A stretch of DNA of 64,000 nt from an uncultured Erysipelotrichaceae bacterium (GCA_902802905.1 CADCNT010000017.1:186-64185); one strand, 5' to 3'; shown: positions 12,303-53,939, numbered from the stretch's first letter. Numbers and translations are program-made. Notes: a model not told the origin generated them from the sequence alone.

Positions 12303-15300
12303 TTAGAATGGTAAATCACTATCATCAACATCGAAGGAACCGAAACTGGTTTGAGTGTTCCTCACTCCTGGAGTTGGATTCATGAAGTAAGGGCAATACC
12401 TTAATGTTGCGTTGTGATCAAAGTTATCCACTACATCTGGTGGAAGCTTAGTGTTTTTGCAAGATAATGCAACTTTATTAGATCTAGTTCCAATAATCGC
12501 ATTGCAGTTATCTCTGCTATCAAAGACTGGATTACCTTTTTCTACTTCAATCTTTTCGATATTGAAGCACATCTCAAATACACGAGATTCAATATAAGTT
12601 ACGTTCTTTGGAATAAATACCTCTTTAACACCTTGATTGTTATAGAATCCAGGGAACGCTAGACGTTTAACAAAGTTAGGAATCTTACTTGCGTCTAAAC
12701 CAAACATTAAAGCGTCATTAACTGGATTAAAGATGATTCCGTCTTTTTCAACATACAAAGGATGATCTTTAGAAATCTTAACATCCACCAAGTTTTCTTT
12801 TTCCATCATTCCAAGTTGGCTTAAATCAGTTAAGGAAGCAGGAATAAATAAGTGCTCTATGTTATCTCTAGTTAACGCAGAAGCCTTAATAGAGGTAACT
12901 CCTTCAGGAATATTTGCGTCATCCGCTAAGTAAACTAGCTCTCTTCCATGGATATCAAATAACGCAGTATTCTCTTTGTTTGTTTTGAAGAACAAGTTGT
13001 CTTCATCAACAAAGATTTTATTTATCTTTGCATTATAAGCAAATTCAGGAGAGATATAGAATAAATTCTTGCCAATATAAAGTTCATCAATTGTAGAATA
13101 GGCAAAGCAATCGCCTAAAGATAACATGCTGTCTTTAAGAACAACTTTTTCAAAGTAGCGAGCATTATAACAACCTCTAGCAATAGAGGTATGTTCAGAT
13201 GGTAATAATGCTTTATTAGTTGTGTACAAGATGCCTTTGTTTTCTAAAGACATAAGGTAGCCATATTCAGACTTGAAGTACTTACTACCATTTTCAACTT
13301 CTATTTCTTTAGCGGTAAATTCATATAGTCCAGCTACTTCATTTACTGAAGCAGGAATACTCAATTTCGCGACGGAAATCCCGCGGAATGCATTTACAAG
13401 TATCTTTTCTAGGCCACTATTTAAGGTGATTTCTTTCACATTAACGCAGTCCGCAAAAGCACTTTCGCAGATATATTTTAAAGAATGCGGGAAAGATAAT
13501 TCGCTTAAACCAGTACATCCTTCAAATGCAGAATCAGATATAATCGCTAAAGATCCAGGGAAATTAATTTCTTTTAATTTCTCAACTTGGAAGAATGCAT
13601 ATTTAGCAATTTGCTCTACGCCTTGAGGGATGCGTGAATTTTTACAACCAAGTAGTAAAACTTTATGTCCATCTGGATCTAAATAAGTAACAATATCAGA
13701 GTCTTCATCACTAAAGACAGAATTGTTCTTGTCTACGTTAATATTTTCAATATCACAGCCTGCAAAAGCACCATTGGATAGTTGCTCTAAGGATGATGGT
13801 AAGTAAACATAATTAATAACTTTGTTATTAAAGAATGCTGCTCTGCCAATATATTTTAATCCTTCATTAAAGGCAGGAACTCTTAAGAATTCACAGCCGT
13901 AGAAAGCTTCATCTGCAATCTTTTCAAGTTCTGGAGGTAAGCTGATTCTTTCTAAAGAAGTACAGTTTTTAAAGCATGCGTTAGGAACAGTGTCGATTCT
14001 TGCATAAGAAACAACAGAATGTAAATTAGTGCAATTTTCAAATGCACTTGCACCAATTACTTCAATTGATTCAGGTAAGCCAATATCTCTTATCGCGCAA
14101 TTTTTAAATGCACTAGAGCCTATACTTTTTACTCCATTAGGAATGCCGACAATTTCCAAGTCCTTGCAGTTTAAGAAAGCTTCAACAGCAATCTTTTCCA
14201 CAGATTCCGGAACATCAACCTTTTGAAGTCCACTATTTGCGAAAGCATTATAAGGTATTTCTTTTATGTTTTTAGGCAAAGTAACTATTTTCAAATTAGT
14301 TGTGAAAGCAAAGACATTTTGGCCAAGCTTTTCAACATTCTCAGGCAATTCAATCTTTTCTAAAGCAGAACAACCTTCAAATGCACAGTTAGAAATACCT
14401 TTTAAGGTGTTTGGCAGAGAAATCTTTTTCAAACTTGTACAGTTTGCAAATGCAAACATTTCAATGTATTCAAGATAAGCAGGTAGTTCAATTTCTTCTA
14501 AAGAAGAACATCCCACAAATGCGCTGCTTGGAATACTATTCATCTCACTATTAATAATGACTTTCTTTAAAGATGTACATCTTGCAAATGCTCCAACCTC
14601 AAAATTCACACCATGAGGAATAATTATTTCTTCTAATAGTTCATTTCCACTAAAAGCAGAACGAGAGATAAATTCAACACTATTAGGAATTATTGTATTA
14701 GCACTTGCTAATAGCATTTGATTAGATTCACTATCAATAAGTGCGCTACAACCTTCTCTACTATCATAAACGCTATTATCTTTGGCAACTTCAATTTTCT
14801 TAAGATGAGAAAAGCAACTGCTTGTTAATATATTTGCCTTAATCTTAAATGTAGAAGGTATATATAGTTCCTCAACATTATCGCAGTCTTTAAATACAGC
14901 GCTATCCATTTTTAGGAGTGACTCTGGAAAGATAACCTTTTTAATTGCAGTGTTGGCAAATGCTTCTTCTCCTAAAGTAATTAAAGAGGTTGGCAGTTTG
15001 GCTTCACTTAAAGAAACACAGTTTTTAAATGCGTGCTTTTCAATAAAGTTAACAATGCCTAAATCTACTTCTTTAAAAGAAGTACAGCCAATAAATGCAC
15101 CCTCTTTTACTTCTCTTACTGTTTCAGGAAGAGCAACTTTCTTTAAAGAGTCGCAATACGCAAAAGCATATTTATAAATGGTTCTAACTCCTTGAGGAAT
15201 TGCGGAATTTTCACATCCTAAAATGAGTCTAGCTTTTTTCACTAAAATAAGAGCGTTACAGTCATCTTCACTGGAGTAAACCATGTTAAGTGGAGCGACT

Positions 15301-17582
15301 TTAATAGACTTAAGTACTTTAGGTAATCCTAGGAAGGCATCTTTACCAATTTGTTTGACCTTTTCAGGAATGTACAAGTCTTCGAAACTTGTACAGTGAG
15401 CAAAAGCGTATTGACCAATTTTGGTTACGCTTCCAGGAATCTCAAACACTAAGTTAGAGCAATTTTCAAAAGCGTGATTGCCAATCTTTGTAATCTTTCC
15501 TAAAACATTAACTTTCTTTAAGTTGGTACAGCCAACAAATAACGAATTAGGAATTTCAGTGATTCCCTCTGGTAGAGTGATTTCTCTTAAGGAGACACAG
15601 TTGGAGAAAGCACCATCTCCAAGTCTTGTAAGAGAAGATGGCAAATTAATCTTTTGTAACCATTTACACGACGCAAAGCAGTTATTTCCAATTGTTTCCA
15701 CTCCTTCTGGAATATCGATTGATTTAAGCATTTTGTTCTTAAATGGATAACTTAAAATTTGTTTTACACCTTTATCAACTATGTCTTTGAGTGTATAGAA
15801 CAAGACATCGTTATAATCAATAATTGATTTGTTGTCTTTAACATTCTTATAGACTTTGTTGTCTTTGCTAATTTCGATTTCCTCTAAACGTGGACAATCG
15901 GTAAATGCATCATCTGCTAATTCTAAAACAGAACTAGACACAACCGCTTTAGTTAAGGATGCACAGTTGGAGAAGGCATTTCTTTCGACTTTTAAAACAG
16001 TATCAGGTAAGACAGCTTCTTTCAGACGAATGCAACCAGCAAAAGCTTTGCTTCCAATTCTTTCAACTCTAGAAGTTGCTAGGTTGGTTTTTGCTAGTTT
16101 TTCATTGTTAGTAAATGCGGAAGCACCTATTTCTTTAACTGATTCAGGGAATGTCACTTCTTTTAGCTGACATCCTTCAAAAGCGGAATCGCCAATTATT
16201 TCTAATTCTTCTGGGAATCTAACTTCATCCAAGTAATAGCAGTACTTAAAGGTAAGGCTATTAATGGATTTGATATATGGAGGAAGTTCCACATAATCAA
16301 TATTTGTATAGGCGAAAGCAGCTTCACCAATATAACGTAAATACGTTGGTAACTTAATTTTGCTAATTCCGGTTCCGTAGAATGCTTTTTTGCCAATTAC
16401 TTTGAGCTTATCATTAAAAATCACTTCTTTAACGTTACTGTTAAAAGCAAAAGCGTCTTGACCGATGCTATCGACAAAGTATGGAATTTCTACACTTTCT
16501 TCTTTACCTAAATACTTCACGATTTCAATCGCATCATTAATGATAAATCCATCAGGGCAAATAACTTTCTTATGAATATTAATTTCAAATTGAGAAGAAT
16601 ACTGTTCAAAATCAGGTATTTCTTCACTGACGCGAGAAATAGATCTCTTGTCTAATTCTTTAGGGTTGAATCTATATGGTTCACCGTATATATTCATGTA
16701 CTTCTTTTGGAATCTCTTATAAGAAACTTCAGAGTTATACGCTAAATAGGCAACGCGAGATTTGATTTCATTATCCAGAGGATAGCAATGATCTTCATAA
16801 CTCTTTTGTTTAGCAATTAAGAAAAGCAAAAAAAGGATATAACGTTTAGAGATTGTAATCTTATTATTTACTTCATTTTCTTTAGAAAGGTTGAGTCCTA
16901 AATAAGAAATGGAGTTATGAGATTTGAAATCTAATTTAACTTTTCTAGTTTTCTTATCATTGATTTCAAGTTTATAAATAGCGAGTTGTTCTTTGATAAA
17001 TTCATAGAATTTATTTAATTCCTTATCATCTTCATATTCACTGGACAAAAGGATGTCATCACTATAACGGGAATAATGAAGAAGAGGATGTTTAGCTAAG
17101 TATTCAGAAATTGCTAAGTCAAACTTCTTCATGTAGAAATCACTAAGCATAGGAGAAGTGACAAAGCCGATAGATAAAGCACCTTTATAGAAAAGACCTT
17201 TAATTGCGTTTTTCCAATCATCATTAAAGTATTCACCGTATTGAGCGAAGAACGATTCTTCGGCGATACTTTCAAAGAAATGATGGATGTCTAATTTAAT
17301 AAAGCAGTTGGATTTAAGATGGCTTTGTAAAGCATCATAGCATCTAACGCCTTTATGATAAGCGAAAGAGAAGAGACTTCTTTGGGAAAAATTGTTTTTA
17401 AACTCTTCGGCAATTTGTTCATGCACTCTTCTTAAAGAAGCACCATAATCACCAAATTTGTTATAAGTAATGATTGTCCTTTCTTTTTTGTTTTTCTCTT
17501 TGATGACAAAAGGATAAACATACTTATCAGGATTTAAAATGTAATCCGCTAAGAGGCGGCTTAATCTATTGATATTTCCCAT
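12303..17582 (-). CDS. reverse transcriptase (retron/Abi-UG-like) fused to a giant BspA-type leucine-rich-repeat (LRR_5-like) array; 1759 aa
   Basis: RT motifs in aa 1-330: KERTIITY; AYHKGVRCYDALQSH; KLDIHHFFESI (motif A Asp); SIGFVTSPMLSDFYM (motif B); YSRYSDDILLSS (YxDD, nt 17066-17055); LEINDKKTR; ISYLGLNL. From about aa 340 there are roughly 50-60 units of the pattern IPxxVxxIGxxAFxxCxxLxxI. No signal peptide. SD GGGAGG lies 8 nt before the ATG. Confidence 0.85.
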   Translation of the reverse strand: MGNINRLSRLLADYILNPDKYVYPFVIKEKNKKERTIITYNKFGDYGASLRRVHEQIAEEFKNNFSQRSLFSFAYHKGVRCYDALQSHLKSNCFIKLDIHHFFESIAEESFFAQYGEYFNDDWKNAIKGLFYKGALSIGFVTSPMLSDFYMKKFDLAISEYLAKHPLLHYSRYSDDILLSSEYEDDKELNKFYEFIKEQLAIYKLEINDKKTRKVKLDFKSHNSISYLGLNLSKENEVNNKITISKRYILFLLFLIAKQKSYEDHCYPLDNEIKSRVAYLAYNSEVSYKRFQKKYMNIYGEPYRFNPKELDKRSISRVSEEIPDFEQYSSQFEINIHKKVICPDGFIINDAIEIVKYLGKEESVEIPYFVDSIGQDAFAFNSNVKEVIFNDKLKVIGKKAFYGTGISKIKLPTYLRYIGEAAFAYTNIDYVELPPYIKSINSLTFKYCYYLDEVRFPEELEIIGDSAFEGCQLKEVTFPESVKEIGASAFTNNEKLAKTNLATSRVERIGSKAFAGCIRLKEAVLPDTVLKVERNAFSNCASLTKAVVSSSVLELADDAFTDCPRLEEIEISKDNKVYKNVKDNKSIIDYNDVLFYTLKDIVDKGVKQILSYPFKNKMLKSIDIPEGVETIGNNCFASCKWLQKINLPSSLTRLGDGAFSNCVSLREITLPEGITEIPNSLFVGCTNLKKVNVLGKITKIGNHAFENCSNLVFEIPGSVTKIGQYAFAHCTSFEDLYIPEKVKQIGKDAFLGLPKVLKSIKVAPLNMVYSSEDDCNALILVKKARLILGCENSAIPQGVRTIYKYAFAYCDSLKKVALPETVREVKEGAFIGCTSFKEVDLGIVNFIEKHAFKNCVSLSEAKLPTSLITLGEEAFANTAIKKVIFPESLLKMDSAVFKDCDNVEELYIPSTFKIKANILTSSCFSHLKKIEVAKDNSVYDSREGCSALIDSESNQMLLASANTIIPNSVEFISRSAFSGNELLEEIIIPHGVNFEVGAFARCTSLKKVIINSEMNSIPSSAFVGCSSLEEIELPAYLEYIEMFAFANCTSLKKISLPNTLKGISNCAFEGCSALEKIELPENVEKLGQNVFAFTTNLKIVTLPKNIKEIPYNAFANSGLQKVDVPESVEKIAVEAFLNCKDLEIVGIPNGVKSIGSSAFKNCAIRDIGLPESIEVIGASAFENCTNLHSVVSYARIDTVPNACFKNCTSLERISLPPELEKIADEAFYGCEFLRVPAFNEGLKYIGRAAFFNNKVINYVYLPSSLEQLSNGAFAGCDIENINVDKNNSVFSDEDSDIVTYLDPDGHKVLLLGCKNSRIPQGVEQIAKYAFFQVEKLKEINFPGSLAIISDSAFEGCTGLSELSFPHSLKYICESAFADCVNVKEITLNSGLEKILVNAFRGISVAKLSIPASVNEVAGLYEFTAKEIEVENGSKYFKSEYGYLMSLENKGILYTTNKALLPSEHTSIARGCYNARYFEKVVLKDSMLSLGDCFAYSTIDELYIGKNLFYISPEFAYNAKINKIFVDEDNLFFKTNKENTALFDIHGRELVYLADDANIPEGVTSIKASALTRDNIEHLFIPASLTDLSQLGMMEKENLVDVKISKDHPLYVEKDGIIFNPVNDALMFGLDASKIPNFVKRLAFPGFYNNQGVKEVFIPKNVTYIESRVFEMCFNIEKIEVEKGNPVFDSRDNCNAIIGTRSNKVALSCKNTKLPPDVVDNFDHNATLRYCPYFMNPTPGVRNTQTSFGSFDVDDSDLPF

Positions 17583-47518: not shown

Positions 47519-47788
47519 CTAACAAGCTACTACTTCATCTACCTCAACTTCAATCATAATGATATTGGCATCTGGAAATTCTTTCCTTAAATCATCAAGA
47601 GGTGTTGGACCATGACATTGTTTGGGAGCGGTTGTTAACATGAGGTGCAATAAATCTTTCGCCATAAATATGGCGTTATCCATATCTGTACCACATGTAA
47701 CTCCGGCGTCAATGTCAGGAAAAGAAACATTAATCCAACCTGGATCTTCTGGATCTTCTGAAAAAATCGCAGGATACTCAAAAATCAT
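47519..47788 (-). CDS. HicB-family antitoxin-like protein (N-terminal UPF0150-type domain only)
   Basis: YPAIFSEDPEDPGWINVSFPDIDAGVTCGTDMDNAIFMAKDLL matches the HicB N-domain pattern (YP..f..d.....v.fPDlpG..t.G.t.eEA). No DNA-binding C-domain and no hicA nearby. Confidence 0.6.
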   Translation of the reverse strand: MIFEYPAIFSEDPEDPGWINVSFPDIDAGVTCGTDMDNAIFMAKDLLHLMLTTAPKQCHGPTPLDDLRKEFPDANIIMIEVEVDEVVAC

Positions 47789-48440: not shown

Positions 48441-49091
48441 TTAATCAAACATGACATGTGGGTTCATCATTGCAGGAGAACGCCACTCAATTCCTTTTTC
48501 TGCTAGATAAATATATTTAAGATGCCATATTTCATGACATGCTCCCATGCCAGAAATTGTTCGATTCTTATAGACTTTTTCTTCTACTTCATCTATTACA
48601 GCAAGATATTCATCACTCATTTCAATTGGATCATGCTTTAAAGAACGCCTGTTTTTCATTCTTTCTGCAAATATATTTTCAAGAACAGTAGGGTCAGTCA
48701 TCCCTTGAGCTAATTCTTTAACATCTTCACAGTCGTCATCAACATAATAATTTCTATCTCTTAATAGTTGATAAATAATCTCAGTTGTGTCTTTAGGAAC
48801 TTTTATTAACCTCTTTGCGTACTTTAAAGAAATTAGTCTATATTTGCTAGCTAACGTAAAACGACCAATGTAAGCATACATTTTCGCAACATAATTGTAT
48901 GTTTTGTATAAAAAGTTAATTGCTTCTTGATTATCCTCTTTAAATGAATTTAGCAAAGTTATAATTTCACTTAAAAAGGGAGAAATAACAAAAGAACGAG
49001 GATTGTCCTTTTCTCTTTCTTCTTCAATCTTTTTTACTATTGTTAATACATCGTCTTGCAGTTTTTCTAACATATTAAGAGATTTCCTCAA
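48441..49091 (-). CDS. hypothetical helical protein (C-terminal CHEIWH...GIEWRSP..NP..FD motif)
   Basis: 216-aa ORF that overlaps the upstream gene by 17 nt; an alternative Met at 49073 removes the overlap. I can name no family with confidence. Confidence 0.5.
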   Translation of the reverse strand: MRKSLNMLEKLQDDVLTIVKKIEEEREKDNPRSFVISPFLSEIITLLNSFKEDNQEAINFLYKTYNYVAKMYAYIGRFTLASKYRLISLKYAKRLIKVPKDTTEIIYQLLRDRNYYVDDDCEDVKELAQGMTDPTVLENIFAERMKNRRSLKHDPIEMSDEYLAVIDEVEEKVYKNRTISGMGACHEIWHLKYIYLAEKGIEWRSPAMMNPHVMFD

Positions 49092-49626
49092 GAAGTTTTA
49101 CATCCTTAAATTTAGGATCTTTTCCAAAGAAGAAATAAATTAATCCATCAAGTTGAGAGAAAATACCCATGTCTGACGCAAGTGGGTCAAATTGTAATAG
49201 CAATTTATCTGGCTCCTCCGCGTAATTCCAATCGTTTGGCTTACCAAAGAGTTTAATTCCTTCTTCATAATCATCGCATTCTGAGAATTCAACTAGGTAA
49301 TCGTCAACATATTGTTCATAGTCATCCACTACTTCGTTGAATCCATTAACAACACATTCTGGTTCACCTTTATAGTATTTAACAATTGGTTTTAATGAAT
49401 ATTCGGAGTCAATTGTGTCTAAGAAGAAATACAAGTACCCCTCGTGTGGCAATAGGTTTTCTTTGTCTAAGTCTTTGATCTCTTCTAATCTAATTTGTAA
49501 AAAGAAGATAACTGAACCATCAAAAGCGTTTATCCATTTTTCTGGTAAAACTGGATTTCCTAAAAATTTGCTTCTTCCTTGATCGTATTTTCCTTTGGCT
49601 TTTTTAACAGTTAATTTGATTGCCAT
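49075..49626 (-). CDS. DUF1963 / YwqG-family protein
   Basis: SKFLGNPVLPEKW...FFLQIRLEEI...LPHEGYLYFFLD and the C-terminal KLFGKP...LLLQFD...DGLIYFFF match the two-lobed YwqG/DUF1963 pattern. Confidence 0.6.
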   Translation of the reverse strand: MAIKLTVKKAKGKYDQGRSKFLGNPVLPEKWINAFDGSVIFFLQIRLEEIKDLDKENLLPHEGYLYFFLDTIDSEYSLKPIVKYYKGEPECVVNGFNEVVDDYEQYVDDYLVEFSECDDYEEGIKLFGKPNDWNYAEEPDKLLLQFDPLASDMGIFSQLDGLIYFFFGKDPKFKDVKLLEEIS

Positions 49627-49638
49627 AGAATTCTCCTT

Positions 49639-52600
49639 TTATTCTTTGACAGTGTTAGCTAAAGCTAAATAGTCTTTCATCCACTTTTTATATTCTTTTT
49701 GATTCTCATAATCATAATCAGAATATAGATATGCATAAAGCGTGCCAATTAAATAATCGCTTTGTAAATCTCTATCACAATAATATAAATAGGAAACTAA
49801 TCGCATAAATACTTGCTCGCAATCGCCAAGATTGAATCGCATTTCAGATAAATAGATAAATTCTTCATCAGTTTCACTCTTATATAAAGTTTGGTTATGA
49901 ATCACTAAAGATATTGTGTAATCCCAAAGAGTATTTTGGTAATCATTAGTTAAGTATCTATAAAGTAGCGGGTAGATGAAGAAGAAATCTTCATTAGGAA
50001 TTTCACAAATATCACGGTTATAAATAGCGGAGGCATATGCAGTTAAATAGCCGATATTAGTAGGGTTTTCAGCGCAATAGAGTCGGCCTCTAAACAAAAT
50101 CCAATCTCTTAAATTGTATTGAATGGTTTCATCAATGTTTTCAAGTTCCACTAAAGTGGAGAAGATAGAAAATAATGGTTCAACAAAGTATAGTTCATAG
50201 AAAGAGCATCTATCTAGATTAAGAAAATCATTTTGTAAAACTAGTTCCCCAACTTTAAGGAAATGATTTAATCTCTGGAAATATAATTCTTCTGATTCTT
50301 CGTATTTTGTTACAATCAAGCTATAGAAAAGACTAATCACTGAATCTATGAGATTGTTACTATACCAGGAAGAGAAATCATCATTGATTAAAGCGCTGTT
50401 CAATTTGTCTAATTGAAGGTTATCTAATACAAATTGTTTATAATAATTTTCAAATAGTTCATATTCGTCCTGGTTGTCAAAATACTCTAAAGCGTGAGCT
50501 AGCAAGGCACGCTTATTAAACAGATTATAATAAACACTATAAACGTTATCTTCACTTAGAGCCTTTAAAGCAATATCGTTATCATAGAAATTCTCAACTT
50601 CAGCAGCAACTTCTTTAAAGCCATCCATCAAATCATCATCAAGAGGATTAATATATTCTCCGTCTATAATTGAATTGTTAATATAACTTGCTAATTTGCA
50701 AATTAAATGGAGATATTCGTTATTTTGATACTTTTTCGTTTTGATTTTTTGTTTTAGATACTTACTTATTCTATAAAAAATATTAACGCAGTCTTCTTTA
50801 TCGTTATCGGTAGTAACGTTCATGAAATATGGATAAAAGATTGTGGAAAGAAGTTTGCCTTTATGTTTATCATCATGTTCCAAGATTTGCTCAAGACAAT
50901 AAATAATGAAGTTTTCTTTAAAGTCATCATCACCAAAAAGAATGTTGCTTATCAAGTCCATTATTTGAGTAAAGGCTTTATCAATCAATCGGTTTTGGTC
51001 AATATTTGCAGACGCAATAAATTTAGTATATGTAATGTAGAATTGTTCCAGATTATTATGCTCTCTTAAAATTGACATTTTTTTGATTAAAGAAGGAACA
51101 CTATCATCAAGATAGTTCACATATTCCATATAAAAATCTTCTTTTATGTAATTATCAACAAGTTCCAAAGCTGCTTTTTTGCCTTCTTCAAAAGCAAAAT
51201 CAATCGCATTATAAATGCTTACTGGTCTAAACAAACTTGGAATCATGTTATATAGAAGCGAAGCATCTAACTCTTTAAATGCAATATTACATTTAAAGAA
51301 GAAGTCACAATATTCATTTATATGCAAACCACAATCATTAGCGGCTAGATATAAGATATGCATTACCGTGTCATAATTTATTCTTTCCGCTAATTCTTTG
51401 AATAATTCTTTTGTAATGGAATGAATATCGTTACCTAGATTTTTAACAATGGAGATCATATATTCATTAATAGCGGACATACCATCGCCAAGATTCCTAA
51501 TGTTTTGGAAATCTTCGTTATCTAACATTAATAATCTTTCCACTACTAAAGAAAGGTAGAGAGGACTACCACTATTCTCTTTTCTGAGAATTTCATTAAC
51601 AACAATACTTGATAACTCTTTATGTTTAGATTCGCAAATCTTGTTAATAATTGCGATTTTCTCTTTTTCAGTTAATTCTTCTAAAACAATTGCATCTGAA
51701 TGGAAAGCAAAGCATAAATAAGGTGAATACCATTTATCACTACGATCGCTCATTACATAAAACGTTGTGTGGAACATCTCTTTAACATAGAATTCTAATT
51801 CCTTAAGGAACGTAATAATGGATCTATCATGATTCATGATAAAGATTTGGAAATGATGCTTTTTATGTTCATCGTTATATTTAATCAAATCCACTAAAGT
51901 TAATATATTTTTGCTCTTTAAATTACGATAATTGAGTTTTTCTTCGTAAAAGGAAATTAACGTATCAATTAAAGCTTGTCTATCATGTGTAAATTCATCT
52001 AAACCAAAAACAAAAGGAAGAACATAATTAGGGTTTTTGTCTTTTGCTAATTTATATAAACACGCGATTGTGGTTTTTCTTCCAGACCCAGGTTCACCAA
52101 GAACATAACGTAGGCAAGGTATATCTTCATATCTTGCCGCATCGTAATTTTCTTTAAATTCACTTTTATGATTCACAGGATCTTTAAGATTTTTTCTAAA
52201 GAAAGCGTACTTAAAGAACGATTCAAAATAGACTTCACTATTGATAATCGCTCTTTGATATTTAGGCAAGCTATTTAGATATTTATAATCGATATCGAAT
52301 ATTCTAGTGAGATCACTATAAATAGTGTCCATTAATTTATCTAAGCCAATTAAACACTTCTTCTCTTGATCATATTCAACGTCGTAGTAACGAACATATT
52401 CTGGATATAGTTTTAAAATCTTTTCTTTTAATGCTTCTAGCTTTTCTTTGTGGAGTGGAGATTCTGATTCATAAATCTTTCTTTCTTCCTCACTCATCTT
52501 AGAAGTATCAAAAGGCCTTCTAAAATAGAAAAGGATTCTTCCTTCATAATCAGGATTTAATAAAGCACCATATTCTATTTCTAGATTTGTTACTGATATA

Positions 52601-52926
52601 TCATTTGGAACATTAGTGATATCTTTCATCTTCATTGCTTCGTCAAGTAAGGAAGAAGAGGGTATCCAGCCATAGCGTTCGCCAACAAAAACAATCATGT
52701 ATGGCTTTGCGTTATCAATCTCATCCAAACATACTTTTAATACTTTTTTAGACGATTCTTCACTCTCTAATTCCGAGGTATTAACACCCCATCTTAAATC
52801 ACCAAATCGCACGGACTCCCCGTATTTTGCTAAAAAATCATTAATTCGAGGAGCAAGACGAATAGACAATTCGTCCCTTTCGAATTGCATATCTTTAAAA
52901 GTGGATGAGACAAACACTAAGCGCAT
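49639..52926 (-). CDS. STAND/NLR-like NTPase with N-terminal DUF4062 domain and long helical C-terminal region (1095 aa)
   Basis: N-terminus VFVSSTFKDMQFERDEL...FGDLRWGV...MIVFVGERYGWIPS fits the DUF4062 pattern. P-loop-like LGEPGSGRKTT at aa 276-286. About 750 aa of helical, repeat-like sequence follow. Confidence 0.7.
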   Translation of the reverse strand: MRLVFVSSTFKDMQFERDELSIRLAPRINDFLAKYGESVRFGDLRWGVNTSELESEESSKKVLKVCLDEIDNAKPYMIVFVGERYGWIPSSSLLDEAMKMKDITNVPNDISVTNLEIEYGALLNPDYEGRILFYFRRPFDTSKMSEEERKIYESESPLHKEKLEALKEKILKLYPEYVRYYDVEYDQEKKCLIGLDKLMDTIYSDLTRIFDIDYKYLNSLPKYQRAIINSEVYFESFFKYAFFRKNLKDPVNHKSEFKENYDAARYEDIPCLRYVLGEPGSGRKTTIACLYKLAKDKNPNYVLPFVFGLDEFTHDRQALIDTLISFYEEKLNYRNLKSKNILTLVDLIKYNDEHKKHHFQIFIMNHDRSIITFLKELEFYVKEMFHTTFYVMSDRSDKWYSPYLCFAFHSDAIVLEELTEKEKIAIINKICESKHKELSSIVVNEILRKENSGSPLYLSLVVERLLMLDNEDFQNIRNLGDGMSAINEYMISIVKNLGNDIHSITKELFKELAERINYDTVMHILYLAANDCGLHINEYCDFFFKCNIAFKELDASLLYNMIPSLFRPVSIYNAIDFAFEEGKKAALELVDNYIKEDFYMEYVNYLDDSVPSLIKKMSILREHNNLEQFYITYTKFIASANIDQNRLIDKAFTQIMDLISNILFGDDDFKENFIIYCLEQILEHDDKHKGKLLSTIFYPYFMNVTTDNDKEDCVNIFYRISKYLKQKIKTKKYQNNEYLHLICKLASYINNSIIDGEYINPLDDDLMDGFKEVAAEVENFYDNDIALKALSEDNVYSVYYNLFNKRALLAHALEYFDNQDEYELFENYYKQFVLDNLQLDKLNSALINDDFSSWYSNNLIDSVISLFYSLIVTKYEESEELYFQRLNHFLKVGELVLQNDFLNLDRCSFYELYFVEPLFSIFSTLVELENIDETIQYNLRDWILFRGRLYCAENPTNIGYLTAYASAIYNRDICEIPNEDFFFIYPLLYRYLTNDYQNTLWDYTISLVIHNQTLYKSETDEEFIYLSEMRFNLGDCEQVFMRLVSYLYYCDRDLQSDYLIGTLYAYLYSDYDYENQKEYKKWMKDYLALANTVKE

Positions 52927-52944
52927 TTAAAAAGCCTATACTTT

Positions 52945-52953
52945 ATTATAACA
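52945..52953 (-). promoter_or_regulatory. extended -10 promoter element (TGtTATAAT) for the STAND operon
   Basis: The minus strand reads CATGTTATAAT about 20 nt upstream of the ATG at 52926. The intergenic gap to the upstream K+ channel gene is only 50 nt. Confidence 0.4.
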
Positions 52954-52976
52954 TGCACAGACTTCATATAATTAAG

Positions 52977-53939
52977 TTATTCTTTTTGACTCTTTTCTTT
53001 TTTGGCTTTTCTTTCGGCTTCTTTTTCTTCAAGGCGTTTTTCAAGTTCCCTAATCTTTTCTTCGTCGTTTTTATGCTCGCTGGCTTTGGTTTCATTATAG
53101 AAATTAACGAAGACACTAGTGAAAGCCGCAACAACGATTAAGCCATATATTCCTAGAATTACAGACAAAACTCTTCCAATAGGAGATACAGCGTATACAT
53201 CACCTAAACCAATTGTAGTAACAATTGAGAATGAATACCATAAGCCGTCTCCAAACGTTTTAATATTGTCCTCCATAATCATGAAATAGAAGGAGAACGA
53301 TACCATCAACATGATAAGGCCATAAATAATCTCGATAATATATGTTTTACGAATGATTTTTAATAAGCCTTTTAGTTTGATTTTGCTGAATGCAAAGCCC
53401 AAAACTTCTGCAAAAGAAATAATGATAATAAAGAACAGAAGTACGGTCATGACTGATGACTCTTCAGTAGCATTAGGGCTAGCGTAAACAGCAACAAATA
53501 ACAAAACAAGAATTGAAAGAAGAACGATGTTATAAATTGTTGTGAACAATTTTCTTTTTTCGAAAATAAGACAAATTCTGTTTGCGGCAATTGTGGCTAA
53601 ATACAAGCCCAAAACAAGATGGAAGAAATAAACATATCTGCTATAAATAACGGCTATTAGTATGACAACAATTAAATAAACAGTGGCGATACCAAGGTTC
53701 TTATAGAACGCTATTTTATTTTGTCTTTCAAAGAATCCATAATAGAAAGCAAGAATGCCACGAGAAGCAGAAAGAGCAACAAACACAAGTAAAAAATACA
53801 GCTTATCAAAAGATCCTCCTGTTAGAGCATCATTTAAAGATAGAAGGGCAAAGCATAAAACCACAACCGAAGCAATTCCGAATAAAATGGAAAATAAATC
53901 AGATGGTTTAACAAAGTTCCATTTTTCTCTTATTTTCAT
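52977..53939 (-). CDS. potassium channel family protein with Lys/Glu-rich coiled C-terminal tail
   Basis: Pore helix plus selectivity-filter-like TTIGLGDVY, multiple TM helices, and a KNDEEKIRELEKRLEEKEAERKAKKEKSQKE tail. Confidence 0.7.
   Translation of the reverse strand: MKIREKWNFVKPSDLFSILFGIASVVVLCFALLSLNDALTGGSFDKLYFLLVFVALSASRGILAFYYGFFERQNKIAFYKNLGIATVYLIVVILIAVIYSRYVYFFHLVLGLYLATIAANRICLIFEKRKLFTTIYNIVLLSILVLLFVAVYASPNATEESSVMTVLLFFIIIISFAEVLGFAFSKIKLKGLLKIIRKTYIIEIIYGLIMLMVSFSFYFMIMEDNIKTFGDGLWYSFSIVTTIGLGDVYAVSPIGRVLSVILGIYGLIVVAAFTSVFVNFYNETKASEHKNDEEKIRELEKRLEEKEAERKAKKEKSQKE

Follow-up and report, generated by a model that had tools for sequence, protein, structure and literature searches.

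How can a protein built like an NLR work as an immune switch when both of the motifs that form the nucleotide site of such switches have been altered? This question is raised by a gene in a 64,000-nucleotide stretch of DNA from an uncultured Erysipelotrichaceae bacterium (GCA_902802905.1, CADCNT010000017.1:186-64185), the whole of which is called the window below. The gene lies at 49639..52926 on the minus strand and is an uninterrupted open reading frame (ORF) of 1095 amino acids (aa) plus a stop codon, as a preliminary description of the DNA had stated. A protein with 100% identity (P0001) is present in the public collection, on a 7.4-kb metagenomic contig. The encoded protein joins an N-terminal NIR (DUF4062) domain to a STAND-type central module and a C-terminal alpha-solenoid. 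The preliminary description of a DUF4062-headed STAND/NLR-like protein was therefore borne out, by the Pfam match of the head, the Foldseek matches to STAND proteins, and the NACHT, NPHP3_N and nSTAND matches of relatives that are presented below. The full-length AlphaFold2 (AF2) model was confident, with a mean predicted local distance difference test (pLDDT) score of 88.9 and a predicted template modelling (pTM) score of 0.83.

We favour, with a probability of roughly 60%, the reading that this is a single-chain, NLR-like abortive-infection sensor. It would consist of a NIR NADase head, a NACHT-related STAND oligomerisation switch, and a hypervariable solenoid acting as the receptor for a presumably phage-derived protein, and an anti-phage role is what would be expected of it. 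In an uninfected cell, the protein would be autoinhibited. Binding of the ligand to the solenoid would release the STAND module, which would then oligomerise and bring the NIR domains together. The window protein and its clade would do so with no catalytic ATPase site, in that the Walker A Lys position appears dispensable, the Mg2+-ligand Ser/Thr has become Lys or Arg, and the Walker B Asp has become hydrophobic. Since the catalytic site appears to be lost and the glycine scaffold and a new K-T pair are kept, assembly would probably proceed without ATP hydrolysis, being either nucleotide-independent or reliant on Mg-free binding of a phosphate-bearing ligand.

The head (residues 1-215; 52282..52926, minus strand) was identified through Pfam PF13271 (DUF4062) on residues 4-118, with E=1.2e-11 and 45 bits against a gathering cut-off of 24.7 bits, and the same domain is carried by all 120 listed homologues. 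The sole significant solved-structure relative in sequence and profile searches of the PDB was 11gz_A ('Telomerase protein component 1', TEP1), which matched residues 4-209 with E=3.3e-14 when the single sequence was used and 6.1e-22 when a family profile of 64 sequences was. This chain has 220 residues, numbered as the TEP1 residue minus 893. Its R15, R61, R83, and E115 are therefore the published R908, R954, R976, and E1008, which fixes the register of the alignment. HMMER paired R908 with K11, R954 with K61, R976 with R84, and E1008 with E116 of the window protein, such that each of the four probed TEP1 active-site residues has a conserved counterpart. E116, the predicted catalytic Glu (codon at 52579..52581, minus strand), was invariant in 183/183 non-identical relatives, made up of the 120 listed database matches and genes from 80 genomic loci. 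Among homologues, R84 was also invariant, and K61 was at least 90% conserved. A model of residues 1-220 (pLDDT 88.7) showed alternating strands and helices, its topology being beta-alpha-beta with a parallel sheet. On the sequence evidence, the head is assigned as a NIR/DUF4062 domain, with a TIR-like fold and NADase activity both predicted. The N-terminal strings that had been quoted for this region, VFVSSTFKDMQFERDEL, FGDLRWGV, and VFVGERYGWIPS, are all present in the translation.

What such a head does has become clear from recent preprints. Osinski et al. (10.64898/2026.05.01.722283) identified DUF4062 as a TIR-like NADase, described the Swarozyc defence system, and reported a crystal structure of the TEP1 domain, in which E1008 is catalytic and R908, R954, and R976 surround a sulphate ion. 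Le Mouellic et al. (10.64898/2026.09.04.749371) renamed the domain NIR and showed that NAD+ is depleted by an Avs2 with a NIR head and by two new systems, Vulcan (NIR-HEAT) and Vesta, and Ibarra-Chavez et al. (10.64898/2026.06.25.731849) described Evangelion. NADase-dependent anti-phage defence has been demonstrated across these 2026 preprints for NIR-Avs2, Vulcan, Vesta, Swarozyc, and Evangelion, and the equivalent Glu is essential in PsAvs2 (E108), Vulcan (E98), KpSwz (E97), and TEP1. The statement in the preliminary description that DUF4062 also heads animal NWD1/NPHP3-type NTPases proved right, with NWD1, NWD2, TEP1, NPHP3, and TTC41 named in two of them (10.64898/2026.09.04.749371, 10.64898/2026.05.01.722283).

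The central module spans residues 270-595 (51142..52119, minus strand) and comprises nucleotide-binding, helical, and winged-helix domains. The best PDB matches in a Foldseek search with the full model were Apaf-1 (3sfz, E=6.5e-5, probability 1.00), the SIR2-STAND protein EfAvs5 (9jap), the archaeal ATPase PAB2304 (2qen), MalT (8bob), and CED-4, followed by other AAA+ proteins including RFC, ORC/Cdc6, and NSF. Profile searches with the window protein itself were silent: neither the full protein nor residues 225-600 matched NACHT, NB-ARC, AAA_16, nSTAND, or any other P-loop NTPase model in Pfam at E<=0.1, and a sequence and profile search of the PDB with the NTPase segment gave generic P-loop matches (RFC, FtsY, ArsA) and MalT at E=0.035. 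The identification instead runs through relatives with canonical motifs. Aligned segments of 17 such relatives matched NACHT in 11 cases (best 5.6e-10), NPHP3_N in 10 (1.9e-12), nSTAND1 in 6 (8.6e-13), and NB-ARC in 5. These relatives carry the textbook motifs GxxGSGK[ST], hhhhD, a GxP-like NPLYLSL, and a winged-helix 'DGRxDFxH', and their alignment with the window protein, at 20-31% identity, runs from one end to the other. Homology thus makes the central module a NACHT-related STAND module, a membership that is transitive through the relatives; in the window protein, the diagnostic motifs are altered. Its own GxP-like motif, NSGSPLYLSL, lies at residues 451-460, and the winged-helix hairpin is also there.

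The remainder of the protein, residues 596-1095 (49642..51141, minus strand), forms an unbroken stack of helices in a confident all-helical AF2 model and is the presumed ligand sensor. Its profile matches were confined to importin-beta, HEAT regions of mTOR, and designed helical repeats. A helical repeat region of about 750 aa had been proposed; the solenoid in fact covers ~500 aa, and residues 416-595 belong to the STAND module, as its helical and winged-helix domains. Conservation falls steeply along the chain. Mean pairwise identity was highest in the NIR domain (84% in the closest clade, 61% in the whole family) and lowest in the C-terminus (37% and 13%), with the NTPase core at 69% and 24% and the helical and winged-helix part at 69% and 41%. 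A conserved effector joined to a fast-diverging receptor is the pattern shown by immune sensors.

The most distinctive feature of the protein lies in its nucleotide site. The Walker B Asp and the Walker A Ser/Thr are the two Mg2+ ligands of a P-loop NTPase. The window protein has neither a canonical Walker A (GxxxxGK[ST]) nor an acidic Walker B (hhhhD[DE]), with G-S-G-R-K-T and F-Q-I-F-I-M-N in their places. LGEPGSGRKTT was quoted correctly in the preliminary description and lies at residues 276-286. In the remodelled loop (GEPGSGRKTT, residues 277-286; 52069..52098, minus strand), R283 occupies the Lys position and K284 the Ser/Thr position; in the Walker B strand (FQIFIMNH, residues 359-366; 51829..51852, minus strand), Met364 stands in place of the canonical Asp. 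Among the 183 relatives, all 103 canonical sequences combined G-K-[ST] with the Walker B Asp, and all 78 sequences of the G-x-[KR]-[TS] class had a non-acidic Walker B (M 37, I 12, V 9, A 8, L 6, T 4, S 1, Y 1). P0111 (GSGRSS) and P0117 (GEDAGAQ), in which the Walker B Asp is retained beside a non-canonical Walker A, belong to neither class. Within the remodelled class, position 283 was variable (R 39, A 19, K 9, V 7, S 2, T 1, G 1), position 284 was K in 66 and R in 9, and position 285 was T in 73 and S in 5. When alignment columns were ranked by how well they separate the two groups, 364 came first and 284 second.

It was observed that 77/78 remodelled sequences fell in one pure clade of a neighbour-joining tree, which spans metagenome-assembled genomes (MAGs) labelled Bacilli, Erysipelotrichaceae, Oscillospiraceae, Lachnospiraceae, and Acutalibacteraceae. 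The clade has new conserved residues just before strand 1 (R265, Y/F266, P270), and the winged-helix His, found in 33 canonical members, occurs in no remodelled one. Forms with GKST and GKKT are found among the relatives and look like intermediates of the Walker A change. Because the Walker A and Walker B changes covary perfectly, the ATPase is probably unable to hydrolyse nucleotide, and the label 'NTPase' in the preliminary description is probably a misnomer for this clade. The P-loop region is nonetheless kept as a scaffold in homologues. The switch has thus probably lost Mg2+ coordination, and hence hydrolysis, yet still appears to be under selection; the remodelled loop may serve as a metal-free binding site for a phosphate-bearing ligand or have a structural role only. 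A more specific version of the first option is tentative and, in our estimate, improbable: the clade would run the NOD/STAND switch without Mg2+ or hydrolysis, with the Lys/Arg at the Walker A Ser/Thr position and the hydrophobic Walker B residue replacing the metal and the glycine loop binding, as a static cofactor or feedback signal, either ATP or a different phosphate ligand, perhaps NAD+ or ADP-ribose. If true, such a metal-free, hydrolysis-free switch would be a new way to run an NLR-type switch, used in dozens of gut Bacillota species.

Several results weigh against the reading of the protein as a hydrolysis-free NADase immune sensor. A Foldseek search of the PDB with the isolated N-domain model gave no match at E<1e-3. 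SARM1 was ranked seventh (E=1.2e-2) and the TIR domain of TLR1 tenth (E ~1e-2), and 11gz, the TEP1 chain matched by sequence, was not among the matches in the PDB copy searched. Full-length NWD1, NWD2, and NPHP3 carry DUF4062 and yet had no NADase activity in vitro, so the presence of the domain is no guarantee of activity. No PADLOC or NCBIfam model matched the window protein, and the same scans of the four downstream neighbours gave nothing useful; in PADLOC-DB v2.0.0, which includes Avs1-Avs5 among others, 0 families matched at E<=0.1, in a library from 2023 that is older than the DUF4062 systems. Housekeeping genes were found in many homologue neighbourhoods, and no recognised defence gene adjoins the NIR-STAND gene in the window. 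Finally, G277, G280, G282, K284, and T285 are strongly conserved in the remodelled clade (G280 and G282 invariant, G277 in 73/78), from which it follows that the loop keeps some role and that 'no nucleotide at all' is not established.

The architecture, which the preliminary description did not recognise, can now be placed, because NIR-NLR-like proteins are described in the 2026 preprints. PsAvs2 with its NIR effector (NIR-STAND-TPR; 10.64898/2026.09.04.749371) follows the same three-part logic, in which a NIR NADase whose Glu is essential precedes a STAND module and helical repeats form the C-terminus, and it acts by abortive infection via NAD+ depletion. Unlike PsAvs2, the window protein has no PADLOC Avs match, its STAND module is NACHT/NPHP3_N-like by transitivity rather than Avs2-like, its C-terminus is unrelated, its Walker motifs are remodelled, and its hosts are gut and rumen Bacillota rather than Proteobacteria. 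Human TEP1, NWD1, NWD2, and NPHP3 share the order of DUF4062 followed by a NACHT-type NTPase. The NIR domain of the window protein matches 11gz (E=6e-22) with the active-site residues conserved, and its canonical relatives match NPHP3_N and NACHT; the human proteins carry WD40 or TPR repeats (and TROVE in TEP1), whereas the window protein has an alpha-solenoid for which no relation to these could be detected and has lost the NTPase motifs. In Vulcan, the NIR domain is fused directly to HEAT repeats, and in Swarozyc and Evangelion it is accompanied by an auxiliary region; all three are single-gene NIR NADase defence proteins in which a variable helical region senses a phage protein, namely lambdap79 for Vulcan and the portal for Swarozyc. 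These three lack a STAND module, while the window protein has ~325 aa of nucleotide-binding, helical, and winged-helix domains between effector and repeats.

For the altered Walker motifs, a bacterial precedent is published: Extended Data Fig. 11 of PMC13581612 presents KpAvs8 as a bacterial STAND protein with degenerate Walker A and B motifs, read by its authors as having no ATPase activity. KpAvs8 belongs to a different Avs family and has a different effector, and the clade described here is set apart from what that figure presents by a covarying, clade-wide swap from GK[ST] with Asp to G-x-[KR]-T with a hydrophobic residue in at least 78 sequences. The three 2026 preprints have already established DUF4062/NIR as a NADase effector in defence against phage, NLR-like proteins included; what is new is the large Bacillota family and the clean covarying Walker swap within it.

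Within 2026, DUF4062/NIR has gone from an uncharacterised domain to a NADase effector common to bacterial defence and human TEP1/NWD proteins. Our analysis adds a mostly Bacillota family of NIR-NACHT-like-solenoid proteins; species-representative genomes, for the most part MAGs from gut and rumen, contain at least 549 of its loci. It also offers a natural experiment, in that one monophyletic branch has swapped both Mg2+ ligands with the NADase head and the loop glycines still under selection. Comparing a canonical with a remodelled member could reveal whether NLR-type assembly needs nucleotide hydrolysis, or binding. The same question arises for animal and plant NLRs with degenerate P-loops. 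The plant sensor NLRs RRS1 and RGA5 have such P-loops and keep the NOD module as a scaffold while the nucleotide-cycle motifs decay, and they work in genetically linked pairs with an intact helper; in the family described here, by contrast, a canonical and a remodelled gene were found together at one locus only (L011).

Two small genes follow the NIR-STAND gene on the same strand, and the preliminary description had treated them as partners. The first (49075..49626, minus strand) begins 12 nt 3' of the NIR-STAND gene and encodes a DUF1963(TYPP)-like protein of 183 aa, matching Pfam DUF1963 with E=4.2e-7 over the N-terminal part of the profile only. The second (48441..49091, minus strand) overlaps it by 17 nt, encodes a 216-aa protein, and is always paired with the DUF1963-like gene. 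One alternative is that the three genes form one system, in which nucleotide control is replaced by the small proteins, for example through a chaperone, inhibitor, or adaptor function. This is unlikely in our view, though it accounts for several observations. The gaps are tight, the TYPP superfamily is a predicted protein-protein interaction or chaperone module (PMC4275035), and the pair lies within a few genes of a NIR-STAND gene in the window and at loci L002, L083, L085/L001, L005, L011, L012, and L038. In most members of the closest clade the pair is next to or near the NIR-STAND gene, with the same gene order as the window in L083 and one gene inserted in L002. The pair is, however, on the opposite strand in L001 and L085, absent from L081 and from beside P0002, the closest homologue, and present in only 6/80 family loci. 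In addition, 5/5 loci sampled through DUF1963-like homologues (L087-L091) had the pair with no DUF4062 gene within 7 kb, or within the 2.3 kb downstream to the contig end in L090; there the pair was recognised by size and position, as a gene of 210-218 aa right after the DUF1963-like gene.

An obligate partnership was rejected on this ground. The pair is therefore an independent module that is often co-resident with the NIR-STAND gene; membership of the DUF1963-like protein in the NIR-STAND system is doubtful, and a functional link is possible and not required. At L087, L089, and L090, a mutually homologous and otherwise unrelated family of ~490-550 aa (about 500 aa), with the N-terminus 'MKENALIV..DFS..TIHT' and no Pfam match, lies just upstream of the pair, and the gene inserted in L002 (L002:7905-8981 region) resembles it by eye.

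A second alternative keeps the protein as an active NTPase whose P-loop has a one-residue insertion (GxxGxG-R-KT), so that the loop is longer and its true Walker A Lys and Thr are K284 and T285. This is the 'extra Arg relative to GxxxxGK[ST]' of the preliminary description. The conservation of K284 (K/R in 75/78) and T285 (T/S in 78/78) beside a variable position 283 is how a shifted functional K-T would look. We nonetheless consider it distinctly improbable. The spacing from the P-loop glycines to the landmarks of helix 1 shows no net change: the distance from the last P-loop Gly to the helix 1 motif [VIL]-A-x-x-Y is the same in canonical sequences (G-K-T-A-Y-V-A-N-E-Y) and in the window protein (G-R-K-T-T-I-A-C-L-Y), a conserved aromatic lies at +9 from that Gly in both groups, the MAFFT alignment is free of gaps, and helix 1 of the AF2 model begins at R283. 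These results rule out an insertion, which places R283 at the Lys position. Two further results oppose an active enzyme. The Asp of Walker B, which is required for Mg2+ and to activate water, is replaced with a non-acidic residue in 78/78 remodelled sequences, and the window protein has no P-loop NTPase profile match at E<=0.1, where canonical relatives have them.

The wider distribution of the family bears on whether it is concerned with immunity at all. A word-indexed protein search found 686 proteins with E<=1e-3 among 8,000 candidates scored, and the at least 549 confirmed loci came from a one-genome-per-species scan, from which the 80 loci were taken for neighbourhood analysis. Nearly all of the 80 are from MAGs labelled Bacillota, many of them rumen or gut, and six carry Bacteroides or Bacteroidaceae labels; several MAGs have two or three paralogous loci. 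Carriage by mobile elements was considered and rejected, with no copy in 50,697 phage records, none on IMG/VR contigs, and only two distant DUF4062 matches on plasmids. The neighbourhoods of the 80 loci have almost nothing in common. The 134 neighbours within two genes include restriction-modification (R-M) methylases, MADS components, PDC-S01, AriA-like, DpdF, PsyrT, and TIR proteins, and also tRNA synthetases and ThiI. An AlwI-type R-M pair lies 6 kb from P0002, and a TIR protein three genes from P0013.

A direct comparison was possible with the nearest relative found, 'Bacillales bacterium UBA3835', whose aminopeptidase is 83% identical to that of the window. It was reached by a synteny search via the aminopeptidase gene; the same search via the adjacent K+ channel gene gave no relatives. 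The two genomes share the order serine dehydratase, aminopeptidase, PAP2-like, and then TM200-like, SurE, and a 792-aa protein. Between PAP2 and TM200, UBA3835 (L092:10191-15526) has ThiS, ThiF, and a 1304-aa surface protein and lacks the NIR-STAND gene; in the same slot, the window has a membrane protein, a K+ channel, the NIR-STAND gene, and the two small genes. The slot is therefore variable. The 1304-aa protein was considered as another defence gene and rejected, as it has a signal peptide and a C-terminal anchor and no Pfam or PADLOC match.

These observations make it very unlikely that the protein instead has a housekeeping role in gut Bacillota, regulating NAD(P)+ pools or signalling. 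The metabolic genes among many homologue neighbours, the lack of an adjacent recognised defence gene in the window, and the absence from phage records and IMG/VR contigs, with only the two distant plasmid matches, would fit such a role. The distribution is patchy, however, with no conserved operon, the C-terminus is hypervariable, the nearest relative lacks the gene in the syntenic slot, several paralogues occur together in some genomes, and all bacterial DUF4062 proteins that have been tested to date are defence effectors. The proposal that homologues would occupy variable contexts rather than conserved housekeeping operons thus held over the 80 loci. With DUF4062 matched and the scaffold of the P-loop retained by homologues, none of the three results named in the preliminary description as refuting it was obtained.

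It is highly improbable that the remodelled protein depends, as the sensor of a pair, on a helper in the form of a canonical, ATP-competent NIR-STAND paralogue encoded elsewhere in the genome, in parallel with plant sensor/helper NLR pairs, whose sensors tolerate degenerate P-loops: paralogous loci in several MAGs and canonical (GSGKSS) and remodelled (GRGVKS) paralogues in tandem at L011 would suit such a pair, but that is the one tandem case among 80 loci, the gene is single-copy within the 64-kb window, and the remodelled clade keeps every NADase active-site residue, so that each remodelled protein would itself be an effector. The L011 segment (L011:4300-11270, Erysipelotrichaceae MAG SVBA01000001) holds the canonical NIR-STAND, a DUF1963-like, and the remodelled NIR-STAND gene in tandem.

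Around the window gene, the flanks are unrelated housekeeping and membrane genes (K+ channel, SurE, aminopeptidase), as had been described. The K+ channel gene ends 50 nt upstream, and no terminator-like site was found between the two. The proposed extended -10 promoter was upheld in part: the motif TGTTATAAT is there (52945..52953, minus strand), 18 nt before the ATG, but is a consensus match only, read from the sequence. A generic consensus promoter scan did not include this site among its predictions, because it has no -35 match. A weak AGG lies 8 nt 5' of the start codon. The G+C content of the gene is 30.2%, against 34.2% for the window; within 49000-53000, values along the NIR-STAND gene and both small genes drop to 0.285-0.32, compared with 0.34 in the window as a whole, which is a mild compositional sign of separate ancestry.

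Some further genes were noted in passing. Directly upstream of the NIR-STAND gene and on the same strand, 16/80 loci have a protein of ~650-690 aa (e.g. L012:2078-4126 (+), L038, L006-L008, L027, L033, L036) for which the window has no counterpart. Transmembrane helices at its N-terminus are combined with a Rossmann-like GFGKLG motif and, at the C-terminus, a region resembling an RyR domain, and no Pfam model matched it above threshold. A role as a membrane partner linked to NAD or ADP-ribose is possible, and the gene often follows that of an HTH_26 regulator (9/80 loci). In the window, an 89-aa ORF at 47519-47788 (minus strand) resembles the N-terminal part of HicB antitoxin at 24.9 bits, below the 27-bit Pfam cut-off. 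It follows a 200-aa multi-pass membrane protein after a 3-nt gap, and no HicA-like gene was noticed. The 200-aa membrane and HicB-like genes were rejected as partners of the NIR-STAND gene, since neither was ever found near its homologues. Elsewhere in the window, a 1759-aa ORF at 12303-17582 (minus strand) is similar to BspA-type leucine-rich-repeat (LRR_5) surface proteins, which recur near family loci (cluster c6).

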